A stretch of 64,000 nt of DNA, from positions 2,081 to 66,080 of IMG/VR virus record IMGVR_UViG_3300009826_000003. One strand, 5' to 3'. Source of the DNA: a virus. This document shows positions 24,573 to 42,443 of this stretch, one piece after another; within the stretch, counting starts at the first letter, position 1, and each line of letters begins with the position of its first letter. Under the pieces are notes generated by a model, which had not been told where the DNA came from, did not search any database, and was given only the letters and a program-made list of their open reading frames with translations. Made by a program: the position numbers and the translations under genes.

Positions 24573-24841
24573 GCAACAATAAGTCTCCTTCTGATAGACG
24601 CCGAAACTTCGCTTCTCACAACAGTTTTAACCCGATTCACAAGGTAGAGCTAGACCAGCGTAAAACCATTTGGTGTACGGAATGCGAATGGCACCAATCG
24701 GATAGCTGGAAAGCAAGAAATAGACTTGGGCACCATATGGTAAATGAGCACCCTGATATTGTGCTATTTAAGCGTGGCCAATTACCACCAGATTTCGTTG
24801 ATGAGGTCAACCCAATAGGAGGAAGGTGTGTTAATGAATGA
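24569..24841 (+). CDS. Small protein with C2H2-like zinc finger
   Basis: WCTECEW...GHHMVNEH. Confidence 0.65.
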   Translation: MSNNKSPSDRRRNFASHNSFNPIHKVELDQRKTIWCTECEWHQSDSWKARNRLGHHMVNEHPDIVLFKRGQLPPDFVDEVNPIGGRCVNE

Positions 24842-26768
24842 TTCAGATTCATTTGTACCGGCCTTCCTTCCGCCCAATGTATCTGTTCCGCCATATCTGC
24901 GACGTGTCACTAAGACTGAGCTTGAGCTTCTGAATGGTGAAGGGCCACAACGGTTTCCGTTCTCTTACGACGAAGCTAAACGAATCTTCTTGGCGCACAA
25001 GGAAAAAGGTGTTCGTATCAGGGTTGAGCCGAAGCTAGCGGCCTGGCTCAAGGATGAGACTAAAATGCGGAATGAATGGAATTTAGACATGATTCCAATT
25101 GATACCGCATTAGGACAAGCCTTGGCGCACAGGCACTTTCAGCGCGAAAGTGTCGATTTCGCTGTTAGGAATCGCGAAGTGTTAATTGCTGATGAGCCTG
25201 GCCTTGGAAAGACATTGCAAGCAATTGCTGCAATTGTGCAAGCTGACATTACAGGGTCAATATTGGTGGTCGCGCCTAAAACGGCTTGTTATGTGACCTG
25301 GCCGCATGAATTGCAAAGGTGGTTGCCGGAAGTCGCGCCATATGATGAATGGGTAATTATTGGCGGCAAAATGACTAAGCTTGGCAGGTTGCGCGCTGTA
25401 AAGCGTGCTCTCCGTTGGGATTTGGGCAAAGGTCGCACAGGTCCGCGCCAGTGGATTGTTGTGTCTCCCAACTATTTACGGTTAAAACCGAAATTAGATT
25501 GGAAGGGACGATTCATTTATGACGATGACGGCAATAAGATAATCAAGCCAGTTCGCGAAGCATTTCCCGCGTTGCTGGCTATTGATTGGGCAGGCATTAT
25601 TGTTGATGAATGTCACCAAACCCTAAGTGGCGCAACAGGAAATCTCAAAAATCAGAGCGCGCAACGTCAGGGATTGGGACTATTAACAACTGCGCCAAAT
25701 GCATTGCGAATTGCGATGTCTGGCACGCCATTTCGCGGCAAACATGAGAATTTGTGGGGAACGCTAAATTGGTTAAAGCCAAGCGATTACCGCTCCGGTC
25801 CCGCTAGTTATTGGGCATGGGTACAAACGCATTTCTACGTTTATCAAGATTATATGGGTAAACGTGTTGTTGGTTCTATGATTGACGAAAAACGATTTGC
25901 GCGCGAAGTACAGAATTTAATGGTACGTCGCACGAAACGTGAAGTGGCACCGGAACTTCCGCAAAAGCTTTATGGCGGAACACCTTTGTATCCAAATGGA
26001 TCGCCAAATAACAAGAATGATAAAGGTCCGGTTGCTGTATGGCTTGATATGTTCGGATCACAAAAACGTGTTTATGAACAAATGGCGCAACAGGCAATGG
26101 CTGAATTGGAGGGCGGAACATTAATGGCTAATGGTGTATTAGCACATATGATCCGGCTAAAGCAATTCGCGACATCGCACGGATTTCTTGGTGGATCGAA
26201 TGATGAGTTTTTCCCGACATTCCCAAGTAACAAATTCGATTGGTTAATTGATTTCTTGTCTGATCGCGGCATTGATGGTAAGGGACCAGGAGAGTCGAAA
26301 GTCATTGTGGCAAGCCAGTTTACGAAAGTCATAAACCTGTATGCGGCGCATATGCGCGATAAATTGGGAATTCCTGTTTTTGTGTTGACCGGCGAAACCA
26401 ACGAAAAAGAGCGTGAATTCTTACAGCGCGATTTTCAAAGGGGAACGCTAGATAATGGTGAACCTTCGCCAGATGTCTTTATGCTCAATACAAAAGCCGG
26501 TGGCGTTTCTCTGACTTTGGACGCGGCAGATGATGTTGTGATTCTGGATCAGACTTTTACGTCAGATGACCAATTACAGGTTGAGGATCGCGTTCATCGT
26601 ATTTCTCGAATTCACCACGTTAATGTCTGGTATTTGGCATCTGTTGGTTCTATTGATGAATCAATCGCCAAGCACACATACAAAATGGAGACCAGCATTA
26701 AGAAGATTCTAGATGGTGAACGTGGAATGGATTTCGCGAAAGTGCTGTTGAGGGATGCGCTAGGATGA
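24828..26768 (+). CDS. SNF2-family DNA helicase
   Basis: ADEPGLGKT, DECH, SGTP, QVEDRVHRI motifs. Confidence 0.92.
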   Translation: MLMNDSDSFVPAFLPPNVSVPPYLRRVTKTELELLNGEGPQRFPFSYDEAKRIFLAHKEKGVRIRVEPKLAAWLKDETKMRNEWNLDMIPIDTALGQALAHRHFQRESVDFAVRNREVLIADEPGLGKTLQAIAAIVQADITGSILVVAPKTACYVTWPHELQRWLPEVAPYDEWVIIGGKMTKLGRLRAVKRALRWDLGKGRTGPRQWIVVSPNYLRLKPKLDWKGRFIYDDDGNKIIKPVREAFPALLAIDWAGIIVDECHQTLSGATGNLKNQSAQRQGLGLLTTAPNALRIAMSGTPFRGKHENLWGTLNWLKPSDYRSGPASYWAWVQTHFYVYQDYMGKRVVGSMIDEKRFAREVQNLMVRRTKREVAPELPQKLYGGTPLYPNGSPNNKNDKGPVAVWLDMFGSQKRVYEQMAQQAMAELEGGTLMANGVLAHMIRLKQFATSHGFLGGSNDEFFPTFPSNKFDWLIDFLSDRGIDGKGPGESKVIVASQFTKVINLYAAHMRDKLGIPVFVLTGETNEKEREFLQRDFQRGTLDNGEPSPDVFMLNTKAGGVSLTLDAADDVVILDQTFTSDDQLQVEDRVHRISRIHHVNVWYLASVGSIDESIAKHTYKMETSIKKILDGERGMDFAKVLLRDALG

Positions 26769-27043
26769 ACACCATTGAAATCCTCTGTGTAGCAACGGGT
26801 CTGGGCGTCGGCGCTGGTGTATTCACCGGCGCTGGCGTTTATCTTCGCCTGGTGGCGCGTCTGAGGGCCAAAGAAGCGCGGCAGGCTGTGGCTAGCGACC
26901 TCGAAAAGCGCAGGGAGACTTACCTTTCCGGTCGCGACCAGGAGCCGCGCGAAAACGCTGGTGTACCAGCAACTTCCAACAGCTTGTTTCCAATTAAGCG
27001 GTTGGGATCGCTGGCCCAAAGAAAAAGAGGGGAAGGTATTTGA
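26765..27043 (+). CDS. Small membrane protein
   Basis: N-terminal hydrophobic helix; ATGA overlap. Confidence 0.65.
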   Translation: MNTIEILCVATGLGVGAGVFTGAGVYLRLVARLRAKEARQAVASDLEKRRETYLSGRDQEPRENAGVPATSNSLFPIKRLGSLAQRKRGEGI

Positions 27044-27067
27044 CAGGCGCGAATCTTTTGGTATTCT
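27040..27067 (+). promoter_or_regulatory. Sigma70/SigA-type promoter
   Basis: TTGACA-N16-TATTCT with TGn extended -10. Confidence 0.55.
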
Positions 27068-27110
27068 TTAGTGGTACCCGAAAGGGCAGGTCAGAAAGGA
27101 AATTTCGGAA

Positions 27111-27605
27111 ATGTCAACCGACATAACAGACGCCAAGATAGAGAATGGCGAAAAGAAAAAGACTGGTGGACCGCGAGGTCCGCGCCAGTGGAAAGACAAG
27201 CCTACTCTGCGCGAACGTGTGATGACGCAGAGCTTGGCCACCTATATCAAGGATGAAACCGGCAAGGATGTATCAGCGGAAACTGTTCGCGCAGTTCGCT
27301 TTTGCCTTCCCAAATGGTCTACCTCTGATGAGACCTCCAAATTGCGGCAGAATATGGACCGCAAGCTGGAAAAGGCCAAGTTTCAGGACAAGCGCGAAAA
27401 AGCGCTTGCAATGCTCCGCGAAGCCGAAAGCGAACTTGAAAAGTACGCTGACGCAACCGATTTGGATGAGTCCGATTTGGACGATGACGAAGAGGATGAC
27501 GACGCCGATTCGGTCGCGGATTACGATGATGACGCTGATGACGAAACCGAAGATGAGGAAGACATTTTTGGTGACGACGAAAAGGTCAGCGTTACAACCA
27601 AATAA
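27111..27605 (+). CDS. Hypothetical protein with basic N-terminus and very acidic C-terminal tail
   Basis: 164 aa, DLDESDLDDDEEDDDAD... Confidence 0.75.
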   Translation: MSTDITDAKIENGEKKKTGGPRGPRQWKDKPTLRERVMTQSLATYIKDETGKDVSAETVRAVRFCLPKWSTSDETSKLRQNMDRKLEKAKFQDKREKALAMLREAESELEKYADATDLDESDLDDDEEDDDADSVADYDDDADDETEDEEDIFGDDEKVSVTTK

Positions 27606-27705
27606 ATAAACACGTCTACCTGGATGGGAATTTATTAAGAGGTCCAATTCCATCCCACCTCGAAGTAGCAGCATTGAGTGTAAGCAATGCGCTCTCCCAT
27701 TCAGG

Positions 27706-27854
27706 TAGGCTCAAACGGGTTGCGGGACAGTGACATTCACTAGACCGGAGCTAGGAATAAGACACTGTGAAAGAGCAACAGACCTTTTTCCCTACTCAGG
27801 GCAGGCAAATGTTGCATAATCCAGTTTAGTTGTCCCGCAACCTTTTTGAGCCTA
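27706..27854. ncRNA. Candidate ~150-nt structured ncRNA
   Basis: 24-nt terminal inverted repeat (22/24 match) enclosing two branched hairpins, in an intergenic gap. Confidence 0.6.
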
Positions 27855-27887
27855 ATCGTTTCCAAGGAAATAAAAGAAGGATAATTA

Positions 27888-28052
27888 GTGTCTAAAAGCG
27901 TCAACTATGAATTGGCCTATAAGGTGAAATGTCCACAATGTAATGCAGAGCCTAAAAAGCCTTGTATAACAGTGGTATTCAATGCAGGTCAGGTTATGAA
28001 AACCTTTCATTCCGCGCGGTATGCGGCGGCAGGGTGTGAGCAATGGGCATGA
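27888..28052 (+). CDS. 54-aa zinc-finger protein missed by ORF track
   Basis: KCPQCNAEPKKPC...FHSAR; GTG start; ATGA overlap with next gene. Confidence 0.7.
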   Translation: MSKSVNYELAYKVKCPQCNAEPKKPCITVVFNAGQVMKTFHSARYAAAGCEQWA

Positions 28053-29077
28053 ATCCTGTTCCGCTGCTTAGGAATTCAGAACGTGCTGATTTCAAACGTT
28101 GTCCGCAACGTTGGAATTGGCGATGGAATGAACATCTTGTATCGTCCCAAAAGGGTGCTGGCCCTTTGGTTTTCGGACAGTACGCACATTTGGCGCTGGC
28201 TGAGTGGTACCAGGCCGGAACCAAGCGCGGAAGACATCCCGCAGAGACTTGGACCGAAGTAACCCAAGAATATGTGGATGCAATAAAGAATGAATCCGCG
28301 TCATATATTGACGACGAAATCGAAGGCACTTGGGAAGACGCGCGTGTATTAGGCGCGGTAATTCTCGACAATTACGTCAAAGAGTATGGCAATGATGACC
28401 ATTGGGAAGTGTTATGGGTCGAAAGGCCAGGCAAGCAATTAATTCCGCATCCCTACGGTAAACAGTATGGCCCCATCGTAAACTATTGCTACACAATGGA
28501 TTTGATTGTTCGCGATCATATGGTTGGTGGTCGAATCCGCTATGTAGATCATAAGTTTGTGAAAAGCGTTGCTACAGAACATCTTTGGATAGATGACCAG
28601 AACGGCGGCTATCTGGCTATCGGGACGCATGAGCTTAGGCGCGCGGGAATTATTAGGCCGCGCGAAGCAGTTCGTGACTTGGTGTATAACTTTGTGCGCA
28701 AAGCGATTCCGCCCGATAAGCCGCGCGATGTCAGGACAGGCGAATACCTCAATAAAGATGGCTCTGTGATGAAGCGGCCACCTCCGCCTTTCTTTGAGCG
28801 CTTTGTGGTGAATAAGACTGTGGCAGAACGCAATTCGCAGATTCGCGCAATTGGTCGAGAAGCGTTGCATATGAAGGCAATTCGTAACGGCAAGCTCCCT
28901 ATCTATAAAACGCCGACGCGGGACTGCAAATGGGACTGTGCCTTTTTCGATTTGTGCCAGGCGCACGAAACAGGCGCAGACATCGAAGAGATGAAATCTG
29001 TATTGTTCAAAAGGGAAGACCCTTACGCTGAGTATTACGAAGGCGCGGAGTCTCCAAAACGATTGGGGGATAAGTGA
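28049..29077 (+). CDS. Cas4/RecB-like PD-(D/E)xK exonuclease
   Basis: RCPQRW...MDLIV...VDHKF...CKWDCAFFDLC (four Cys). Confidence 0.85.
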   Translation: MNPVPLLRNSERADFKRCPQRWNWRWNEHLVSSQKGAGPLVFGQYAHLALAEWYQAGTKRGRHPAETWTEVTQEYVDAIKNESASYIDDEIEGTWEDARVLGAVILDNYVKEYGNDDHWEVLWVERPGKQLIPHPYGKQYGPIVNYCYTMDLIVRDHMVGGRIRYVDHKFVKSVATEHLWIDDQNGGYLAIGTHELRRAGIIRPREAVRDLVYNFVRKAIPPDKPRDVRTGEYLNKDGSVMKRPPPPFFERFVVNKTVAERNSQIRAIGREALHMKAIRNGKLPIYKTPTRDCKWDCAFFDLCQAHETGADIEEMKSVLFKREDPYAEYYEGAESPKRLGDK

Positions 29078-29078
29078 T

Positions 29079-29264
29079 TTGGCAACGTTAATCTTGTGTC
29101 CAGAATGCCAGCGGCATAGGGCAATTCTTAGAGTGGTAGATTCTATTGAGGGCGATAAAAAGATTTTTGTATTAGATTGCCGACAAAGGCCAAACCATTT
29201 AGGACGGTTTCATACTGTGCCAAAAGATGAGGCAACAGGAATGACTATTGAGGAGGTAATGTGA
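29079..29264 (+). CDS. Small zinc-ribbon protein
   Basis: CPECQ...DCRQ; TTG start. Confidence 0.6.
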   Translation: MATLILCPECQRHRAILRVVDSIEGDKKIFVLDCRQRPNHLGRFHTVPKDEATGMTIEEVM

Positions 29265-30082
29265 CCGAATTGCCAAGTGAGATAGTACCTTTGGAGGCGG
29301 TAGCTCCGCATCCAAATATATTGGTGTATGCGAGAAGTGGAACAGGAAAAACGGTATTTGCCGGTAGTGATGATTCTGTTCTAATTCTCAACACTGAACC
29401 GGAGGGTGAGGTCTCCGCGCGCAACCTTGGGTCGAAGGCGAAGCAGTGGAAAATTCACTCTTCCAAAGACCTTGATAAAGTGTATGATTGGGCTATGTCC
29501 CTGGTCGAATCGGGCAAACGAATTCCGTTCAAGTGGTTTTGCTTTGACAGTCTAACTACTTACCAGCGAATTGATATGGACGAATTGTTGGAAGAGGGAG
29601 TAGCTATCAAATCGGCAAAAGACCCATTTGTACCGGAAATAAAGGACTACCTCAAAAATCAGCGCCGAATCGTAAGGCGCATAAAGGAATTCAACCAATT
29701 GCCGGTCAATATGCTGTATACTTGCCTGACAATGGATAAGGTGGACACCGAAGGAAACGAATTTGTATTTCCGCAAATTCACGGCAAGGATTACGAAGTC
29801 GCGGAACAGGTTTGCGCGTCTATGACCAGCTTTGGCTATCTGTTCACCAAACCGAAGACGAAAGTTGTTGATGGCCAACGGAAACGAATTGCTGGTATTG
29901 ACCGCTATATTCAATGGGAGACTATGCGGAATGTTCCTGGCAAAGACCGTACATTGGCCCTTGCGCCATACACAAAGCTACCGGAGCGGGATGCGCTCAA
30001 GTATATTAGGGAAAGGATGGAAAAGGCAGCAGCACAACACAATTCAGCAAATGGAACTGTGAAAATAGAAGGGAAAAAGTAA
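29261..30082 (+). CDS. AAA/RecA-like ATPase (Sak4-like recombinase)
   Basis: YARSGTGKT Walker A, FDSLT Walker B; sits between exonuclease and SSB-like gene. Confidence 0.8.
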   Translation: MTELPSEIVPLEAVAPHPNILVYARSGTGKTVFAGSDDSVLILNTEPEGEVSARNLGSKAKQWKIHSSKDLDKVYDWAMSLVESGKRIPFKWFCFDSLTTYQRIDMDELLEEGVAIKSAKDPFVPEIKDYLKNQRRIVRRIKEFNQLPVNMLYTCLTMDKVDTEGNEFVFPQIHGKDYEVAEQVCASMTSFGYLFTKPKTKVVDGQRKRIAGIDRYIQWETMRNVPGKDRTLALAPYTKLPERDALKYIRERMEKAAAQHNSANGTVKIEGKK

Positions 30083-42227: not shown

Positions 42228-42298
42228 GAAAAATTCGAAGTCGAGTAACAAATCGCAGGTCAGCGCTTTTTGTATAATGTTAGCTGAGAAAGGAGACC

Positions 42299-42443
42299 GA
42301 AATATGTTGTGTAACAACATCTTTCGATTAGAGACCGAAAAGCGTTGTGCGACAACGCTTTTCGCCAAATTGAGCGCAGCGCAAAACAACGAAAGTTGTT
42401 GTGCGCGAAGCGAATTGAAAAGCCTTGCAACGCAAGGGTTTTC
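42299..42443. repeat. Three 11-bp/5-nt-loop dyads
   Basis: 42299-42325, 42337-42363 (perfect) and 42417-42443; same geometry as the array hairpin cores. Confidence 0.8.

Follow-up and report, generated by a model that had tools for sequence, protein, structure and literature searches.

The window analyzed here, a 64-kb stretch of viral DNA, belongs to a complete 71,237-bp IMG/VR phage genome with direct terminal repeats. At 27606-27887 it contains an intergenic gap whose neighboring genes all lie on the + strand. Upstream are an SNF2 helicase gene (24828-26768, 646 aa), a 92-aa ORF and a gene encoding a 164-aa protein with an acidic C-terminal tail (27111-27605; phrog_16368), which is annotated as a methyltransferase, a function that we consider doubtful. 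Downstream, a 54-aa ORF with a zinc-finger match (Phage_zn_bind_8, 27888-28052) is followed by genes for a Cas4/RecB-like exonuclease (28043-29077) and a Sak4-like ATPase (29261-30082). The SNF2 helicase of one related metagenomic phage (L031, 3498-6416, - strand) is 972 aa long, against 646 aa in the window, and this extra length, together with LAGLIDADG and Hint matches, suggests an intein.

A preliminary description, made from the window alone, placed the gap downstream of a TTGACA promoter unit. A sigma-70-like match of this kind does exist (TTGACA-16-TATTCT, 27040-27067, + strand, 10/12 with a TG extension), but it lies about 540 nt upstream, ahead of the 27111-27605 ORF. This site, which matches the consensus and no more, is the closest candidate for the start of a transcript that would carry the gap. 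No sigma-70-like promoter was found within the gap itself, and a scan of 26500-28500 placed no terminator-like site there. The search for tRNA and tmRNA genes was likewise negative, with ARAGORN and the Rfam tRNA model both blank on the window copy of the element described below.

Within the gap, two 24-nt arms at 27706-27729 and 27831-27854, separated by 101 nt, are 92% complementary (22/24), exactly as the preliminary description had proposed. When the full 64 kb was scanned for 24-nt inverted repeats (minimum 22 Watson-Crick matches, maximum loop 150 nt), this pair and no other was recovered; the chance expectation for a repeat of such quality in the window is 8.6e-5, and none arose in five shuffles. 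The 149-nt stretch delimited by the arms has a much lower folding energy than its shuffled versions on either strand (z of -6.3 on + and -7.6 on -; 0/200 shuffles). The inner palindromes proposed earlier are also present, both in the sequence and in the minimum-energy fold: CAGTG (27728-27732) with CACTG (27763-27767), ATTC..CTAG with CTAG..GAAT (27735-27758), GCAACA (27775-27780) with TGTTGC (27810-27815), and CCCT with AGGG (27790-27801).

The extent of about 150 nt assigned to this structure was too short, because the stem makes up only the 3' half of a two-helix element of about 240 nt. Helix H1 adjoins it upstream (27616-27629 with 27695-27708, + strand) and consists of 14 bp, with a G.U at the eighth pair and a 65-nt apical region. 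Helix H2 abuts H1 without a linker (27709-27729 with 27831-27851, + strand) and is built from 7 bp, a 1x1 mismatch of C27716 opposite U27844, and 13 bp. The TAG at 27706-27708 and the CTA at 27852-27854 could add 3 bp to H2, a pairing that competes with the base of H1. Between the H2 arms lies a variable apex (27730-27830), which in this phage holds two hairpins and takes on a Y shape. Two sequence motifs accompany the helices on the + strand. One, ACAACCAAATA (27594-27604), stands in the 5' flank, 8-12 nt ahead of H1, and overlaps the stop codon of the 27111-27605 ORF; the other, the C/U-rich UUCCAUCCCACCUC (27648-27661), lies in the H1 apex.

Both helices recur in eight phage lineages, always between a gene for a protein of about 160 aa and a Cas4-like exonuclease gene. 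We count as lineages this uncultured phage; the metagenomic L007 and L008; the L031 group (L031, L018, L044 and L047, near-identical and treated as one metagenomic lineage); Fowlmouth/MrMiyagi; Cuke; Indlulamithi; and the cluster R mycobacteriophages (L009 and Papyrus, L040; twelve records of at least 99% identity). The metagenomic relatives and cluster R came to light through pattern and protein searches. In every lineage the gene ahead of the element is a homologue of the ~160-aa gene, which establishes a fixed genomic slot. In the Mycobacterium phages Fowlmouth, MrMiyagi, Cuke and Indlulamithi, the flanking genes show 64-68% similarity to those of the window, and the corresponding slot is a gap of 225-290 nt, unannotated in GenBank, with both helices inside.

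The family is rare. A pattern for the 5' arm gave 29 matches in IMG/VR, 20 of them without a partner arm, and a strict two-arm pattern matched four of 241 million metagenome records, all in known lineages, and none of 185,579 prokaryote species genomes. An exonuclease profile search uncovered relatives without the element, and phages that have a similar exonuclease and lack it include L054/L055, L061, Streptomyces phage Yara and Rhodococcus phage MacGully. The exonuclease gene of L054/L055 is preceded by a promoter-like site of its own, and since these close relatives use that site for the exonuclease, the element is dispensable. In L054 (2270-2445), whose exonuclease is 65% identical, GCTAGGATGGCAACC occurs twice ahead of the exonuclease leader, along with a promoter-like TTGACA-N17-TAGGAT site. 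A CAGGGTCGA motif present 3' of H2 is assigned to the exonuclease leader because L054 keeps CAGGGTCGA without the element.

This distribution bears on the idea that the arms are the terminal repeats of a miniature mobile element or of a retron-type msr/msd. The inverted repeat is indeed long, and in L007 an imperfect direct repeat (ATAGGGGAC / ATAGGGGTC) flanks H1 and H2. However, the element is present once in the complete genome of this phage, in a syntenic slot that is constant across lineages, and with no target duplication in the window. Its matches in metagenomes all belong to known lineages, the prokaryote genomes yielded none, and the element as a whole does not end in inverted repeats. 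The earlier likening of the arms to those of a retron gains nothing from the complete phage genome, in which no reverse transcriptase (PF00078) was detected, or from Rfam, where no model matched at E up to 10. We find an origin of this kind barely credible.

The alignment of relatives provides strong evidence for the fold. RNAalifold, applied to a nine-sequence alignment, predicted exactly H1 and H2 de novo, with 33 pairs of which 16 show compensatory changes. When H2 was scored with the window copy left out, 98.1% of cells were paired and 8/20 pairs carried two-sided changes, values that 0/500 shuffles reached; sliding the arms as a control dropped pairing to 38-50%. H1, in seven aligned sequences, was paired in 100% of cells with two-sided changes in 8/12 pairs, again reached by 0/500 shuffles, and L008 and Indlulamithi have their own H1 with additional compensatory changes. 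A covariance model of H2 alone (R1), built from eight relatives without the window, found the window copy with 50.9 bits (E 5e-12) and had no match in 27 unrelated loci. Because the H2 arms are nearly palindromic, this model is blind to strand. These results establish the fold and its conservation, and the arm sequences themselves are conserved somewhat beyond what pairing alone would need.

Elsewhere in the window, the H2 model gave weak matches at 42294-42368 (11.7-15.5 bits, E 0.055-0.63), on both strands and over two adjacent 37-nt dyads. These fall inside a dyad-bearing stretch at 42299-42443 and are probably mere palindromes. Some relatives also appear to form a third helix from the two flanks of the element. 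This helix is strong in Papyrus, Cuke, L031 and Indlulamithi and absent in the window, L007 and L008; we rejected it as a shared feature and left it out of the family core.

The helices also reveal which strand folds. Counted on the + strand across all lineages, they contain 241 Watson-Crick pairs, 24 G.U pairs at 13 positions and 5 other mismatches, and A.C is limited to a single position. On the - strand the 24 wobbles would be C.A mismatches, and the structure therefore forms in one strand, in the mRNA sense. RNA is the natural reading of this pattern, with single-stranded + DNA as the weaker alternative. Since G.T pairs are tolerated in single-stranded DNA hairpins, the strand asymmetry alone does not decide against DNA, and the setting invites the thought that hairpins in single-stranded + DNA serve as a priming or origin signal or as a recombination hotspot: the element sits among helicase, exonuclease and Sak4 genes, and a mosaic breakpoint described below falls exactly at the H2 arms. 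Yet the GC skew is flat and unchanged across 26-30 kb, and the folded strand is the mRNA sense. The 24 wobble pairs, one of them kept in 7/8 lineages, are typical of RNA, and relatives hold bona fide RNAs, GOLLD and a tRNA-like module, in the corresponding slot. A role at the DNA level is thus very improbable.

We regard the element as an uncatalogued small RNA family that is well supported by covariation. The central proposal of the preliminary description, a structured RNA closed by a long stem, is thereby upheld: eight lineages show covariation, and the G.U pairs are restricted to the + strand. The Rfam search that it recommended returned no family: with Rfam 15, nothing in the window passed a gathering score, and permissive searches yielded nothing relevant at E up to 10 over 27400-28100 or at E up to 5 in six relatives. 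In the literature, we found no paper describing the element or the intergenic RNAs of these phages.

Several details of the helices have been held constant. The H2 layout of 7 bp, a mismatch and 13 bp, about 21 bp in length or about two A-form turns, is the same in all lineages. Position 8 of H2 is the sole helix position that is noncanonical in every lineage, and it does so with different residues, A.C in six lineages, C.U in the window and U.U in L008. In H1, the G.U at pair 8 is kept in 7/8 lineages.

A long stem with one conserved noncanonical position recalls the Ro-binding helix of Y RNAs, and we considered whether a host Ro60/Rsr protein has the element as a Y RNA-like partner. Several relatives infect M. 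smegmatis, which is known to encode Rsr, and a T-arm in the H2 apex of MrMiyagi could correspond to the tRNA-like domain of YrlA. The preliminary description, which drew the Y RNA comparison, also stated that no Ro60 or reverse transcriptase gene was visible, and for Ro60 too this holds for the complete 71,237-bp genome: a TROVE (PF05731) search gave no match there and did detect control genomes. Moreover, no Rfam Y RNA or YrlA model matched the window or six relatives, the former at E up to 10. The tRNA-like part occurs in one lineage only and meets the stalk via its acceptor side, and in YrlA the tRNA-like domain is joined in another way. H1 has no counterpart in Y RNAs. Such a partnership is therefore highly improbable.

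Two conserved motifs outside the helices suggest a different possibility. In the 5' flank, the family consensus ACAAYTAAATAG is found 8-12 nt ahead of H1 in 7/8 lineages, cluster R being the exception. The rest of the window shows no enrichment of it, with 14 matches against 8.4 expected, and we rejected a repeated phage promoter as its explanation, there being no enrichment in the genome. The C/U-rich motif of the H1 apex has the family core CCAUCCUC / CCUCC, resembles an anti-Shine-Dalgarno sequence and is present in 8/8 lineages, in an apex that itself varies from 12 to 65 nt. Neither the downstream leader nor the ribosome-binding site is significantly complementary to it. Masking of the start site downstream by this motif was rejected, as complementarity exceeded that of shuffles in no lineage, and so was alternative pairing of the loop motif with the 5' arm of H1, which fits the window by eye and lacks covariation in Fowlmouth and Cuke.

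These motifs would be accounted for if the element were a stable free non-coding RNA that acts in trans, either excised or made from an unrecognized promoter at ACAAYTAAATAG, with the H2 apex as an exchangeable module. The C-rich H1 loop might pair with G-rich, Shine-Dalgarno-like sites of host or phage mRNAs, or the RNA might be a protein scaffold or sponge. In several sRNAs of Gram-positive bacteria and actinobacteria, 6C and the Rsa RNAs among them, a C-rich loop is the seed region. The presence of CCAUCCUC or CCUCC in every H1 apex without a cis partner in the downstream leader, the fixed distance of the 5' motif from H1, the exchange of the apex as a unit and the adjoining of GOLLD, itself a phage RNA of unknown function, are all consistent with such a role. 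On the other hand, neither a sigma-70-like promoter nor a terminator was found in the gap, and the 5' motif is not repeated at other sites of the genome and is absent from cluster R. No specific target of CCUCC can be named, because any strong ribosome-binding site would pair with it. We consider a free RNA, the main rival of the processing model set out below, possible, though rather unlikely.

While the stalk is constant, its apex is free. The H2 interior of relatives ranges from 40 to 107 nt and is unrelated in sequence between lineages, and blastn found nothing related to the window interior, either in the phage collection or in the remainder of the phage's own genome. Because the apex is replaced or unrelated across relatives, the Y shape inferred in the preliminary description belongs to this phage only; its two inner hairpins have no equivalent in the family. 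The clearest exchange separates Fowlmouth (L005 2543-2617) from MrMiyagi (L010 2543-2634). These phages, members of one species, are 99-100% identical over 2.5 kb on each side, and the only difference is the H2 apex, which is replaced wholesale. The breakpoints coincide with the helix arms, which thus delimit a cassette exchange, and it establishes that the apex is exchangeable.

The incoming module has an identifiable relative. In the cluster H phage Predator, the gap that follows gp72 contains a tRNA-like element with which the MrMiyagi apex, the only one among the copies of our element with a T-arm, aligns lengthwise, and the T stem shows a compensatory change between both phages. The MrMiyagi apex is thus homologous to the Predator element, which means that the stalk hosts separate RNA modules. 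In Predator itself, the tRNA-like element (L062, about 1195-1300) is unannotated, lies in a 325-nt gap and is common to cluster H phages; it has a closing stem AAAATGGG/CCCATTTT and a T-arm GTGGGTTCAACTCCCAC, and is not called by ARAGORN or Rfam.

In cluster R, the slot contains a second RNA. The gap there is 1,160 nt long, gene-free and unannotated, with H1-H2 first and then a GOLLD RNA (Papyrus L040, 1341-2500; L009, 1838-3000). GOLLD (Rfam RF02032) scores 180 bits on L009 against a gathering score of 150, and the shared H1-H2 and GOLLD gap is found in 12/12 cluster R records of the collection (at least 99% identical). The element occurs without GOLLD in seven lineages, and neither the window nor the rest of its phage genome has a GOLLD match at E up to 1. 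Conversely, an unrelated 47-kb IMG/VR phage contig (L048, 6954-7394, - strand) carries a GOLLD of 226 bits, with a tRNA embedded in its linker, and no such helices upstream. We therefore rejected the idea that H1-H2 is a general 5' part of GOLLD and conclude that the element is an independent module able to adjoin it.

The junction behind the ~160-aa gene attracts structure more widely. Distant actinophages have a remote homologue of this gene, linked via overlapping PHROG families, and directly after it stand very stable structures unrelated to ours in Gumball (z -4.2), Jalebi (z -4.0) and Nocardia phage P3.1 (z -4.7). Ajin has a single 13-bp GC-rich hairpin in the same slot (z -5.8). The recurrence of strong structures at this junction seems to argue for a role tied to operon position. 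The structures of Gumball (L064 650-840), Jalebi (L065 1345-1505) and P3.1 (L043 2000-2196) share a three-helix layout, unrelated to H1-H2, that comprises a C-rich CCAYCC strand, a hairpin whose loop resembles ACATGGGGATGG and a long helix interrupted by a single mismatch. A P3.1 CDS annotated at 2062-2517 overlaps its structure, and its start is more likely at the ATG near 2196.

Taking the exchange and the GOLLD arrangement together, one could picture H1-H2 as a dedicated cassette holder: a double-stalk scaffold with a hot-swappable slot for RNA modules, such as tRNA-like elements and other folds, at the H2 apex, which in cluster R would also define or tether GOLLD, and with the invariant C-rich H1 loop as a handle for a host partner. 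This proposal is speculative and we judge it unlikely. If it were true, these phages would own an RNA-level platform to acquire, express and release non-coding RNA cargo.

The reading that we favor, with a probability of roughly 40%, is that the element acts in cis between two cistrons on the mRNA of the recombination module, as a signal for processing and stability, and is probably a substrate of the RNase III type. The double-stranded stalk H2, two turns long and possibly stacked coaxially on H1, would be recognized by a host ribonuclease of the RNase III type that is specific for double strands. Whether by cleavage or by the mere presence of the structure, the exonuclease and Sak4 genes would be uncoupled from the ~160-aa gene ahead of them, and protective hairpins would remain on the cut ends. 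The RNA of the H2 apex might be released or presented, as a tRNA-like module in MrMiyagi, and the element might serve as a boundary for GOLLD in cluster R. Transcription within the operon, cleavage and any effect on stability are what we infer.

Several observations argue for processing. RNase III stalks consist of about 20 bp or more of near-continuous double-stranded RNA conserved as a helix, and H2 has this form. A constant stalk of about 21 bp below a free apex of 40-107 nt is the pattern expected if only the stalk is read, as is the case for the RNase III stalks around rRNAs and at the intercistronic sites of T7. Compensatory changes in both helices, wobbles on the + strand, co-directional genes and a gap in which no terminator-like site was found all support the model, and so does cluster R, where GOLLD needs excision from the shared gap. 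Other observations count against it. The phage genome contains no RNase III gene, and H1 alone is too short for the enzyme. The invariant CCUCC loop and the 5' motif ACAAYTAAATAG are left unexplained by simple processing, and neither the conservation of the arms beyond pairing needs nor the dispensability in L054/L055 fits it well.

We also considered a partial terminator or attenuator, in which the GC-rich upper H2 stem and the U-run of its 3' arm would halt some of the polymerases behind the ~160-aa gene and thereby lower the expression of the downstream enzymes. The 3' arm has UUUUU (CUUUG or UUUUG in relatives) right after the 13-bp GC-rich stem, and Ajin has simple GC-rich hairpins in the corresponding slot. 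However, the terminator scan of 26500-28500 was negative, and the U-run is paired to a conserved CUCAAA of the 5' arm. The "loop" would be 40-107 nt long (101 nt in the window), and both H1 and the conserved mismatch would go unexplained. We conclude that attenuation is quite improbable.

Our findings add a covariation-backed, uncatalogued RNA family to the actinobacteriophages, provide a clean example from nature of a cassette exchange that affects the apex of an RNA helix and nothing else, and place a small conserved RNA beside GOLLD, an RNA whose role has long been sought. Should the stalk turn out to be a processing signal, we would understand how these phages cut non-coding RNAs, and genes that differ in expression, from a single long transcript; should it be a scaffold that holds swappable cargo, it would represent a new principle of phage RNA organization. 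Because Fowlmouth, MrMiyagi, Cuke, Indlulamithi and Papyrus grow on Mycobacterium smegmatis, the family is directly testable by phage engineering.

The element has partial likenesses in known systems. GOLLD (RF02032) and ROOL are also phage-borne structured RNAs with a variable segment able to hold tRNAs or tRNA-like modules, but the element is much smaller, shows no hint of multimeric cages and, in the window, comes without a GOLLD match. YrlA resembles the element in its long, not quite regular terminal stem and in a distal part that varies, and a tRNA-like domain is a further likeness in MrMiyagi alone. Unlike YrlA, however, the element has an extra helix H1, no Ro60 gene and no covariance-model match, and the tRNA-like domain is missing from the window copy and attached differently in MrMiyagi. 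The tRNA-like punctuation elements, such as the t-elements of plant mitochondria, are similarly intercistronic, and the MrMiyagi apex belongs to a tRNA-like family. Here, though, it is the double stalk that is conserved and not a tRNA-like top half, and the window copy has no T-arm or tRNA match. With RNase III stalks, such as the R sites of T7 and the stems of 16S and 23S rRNA, there is no sequence relation, and they differ from the element in that it has two abutting helices, a conserved C-rich loop, a 5' motif, a rather well conserved stalk sequence and a cleavage that is predicted only. What the two have in common is a double-stranded stalk of about two turns, placed between genes that are, for the element, presumably co-transcribed, or around a cargo, with the stalk conserved, the apex free and an internal noncanonical position that breaks the helix.
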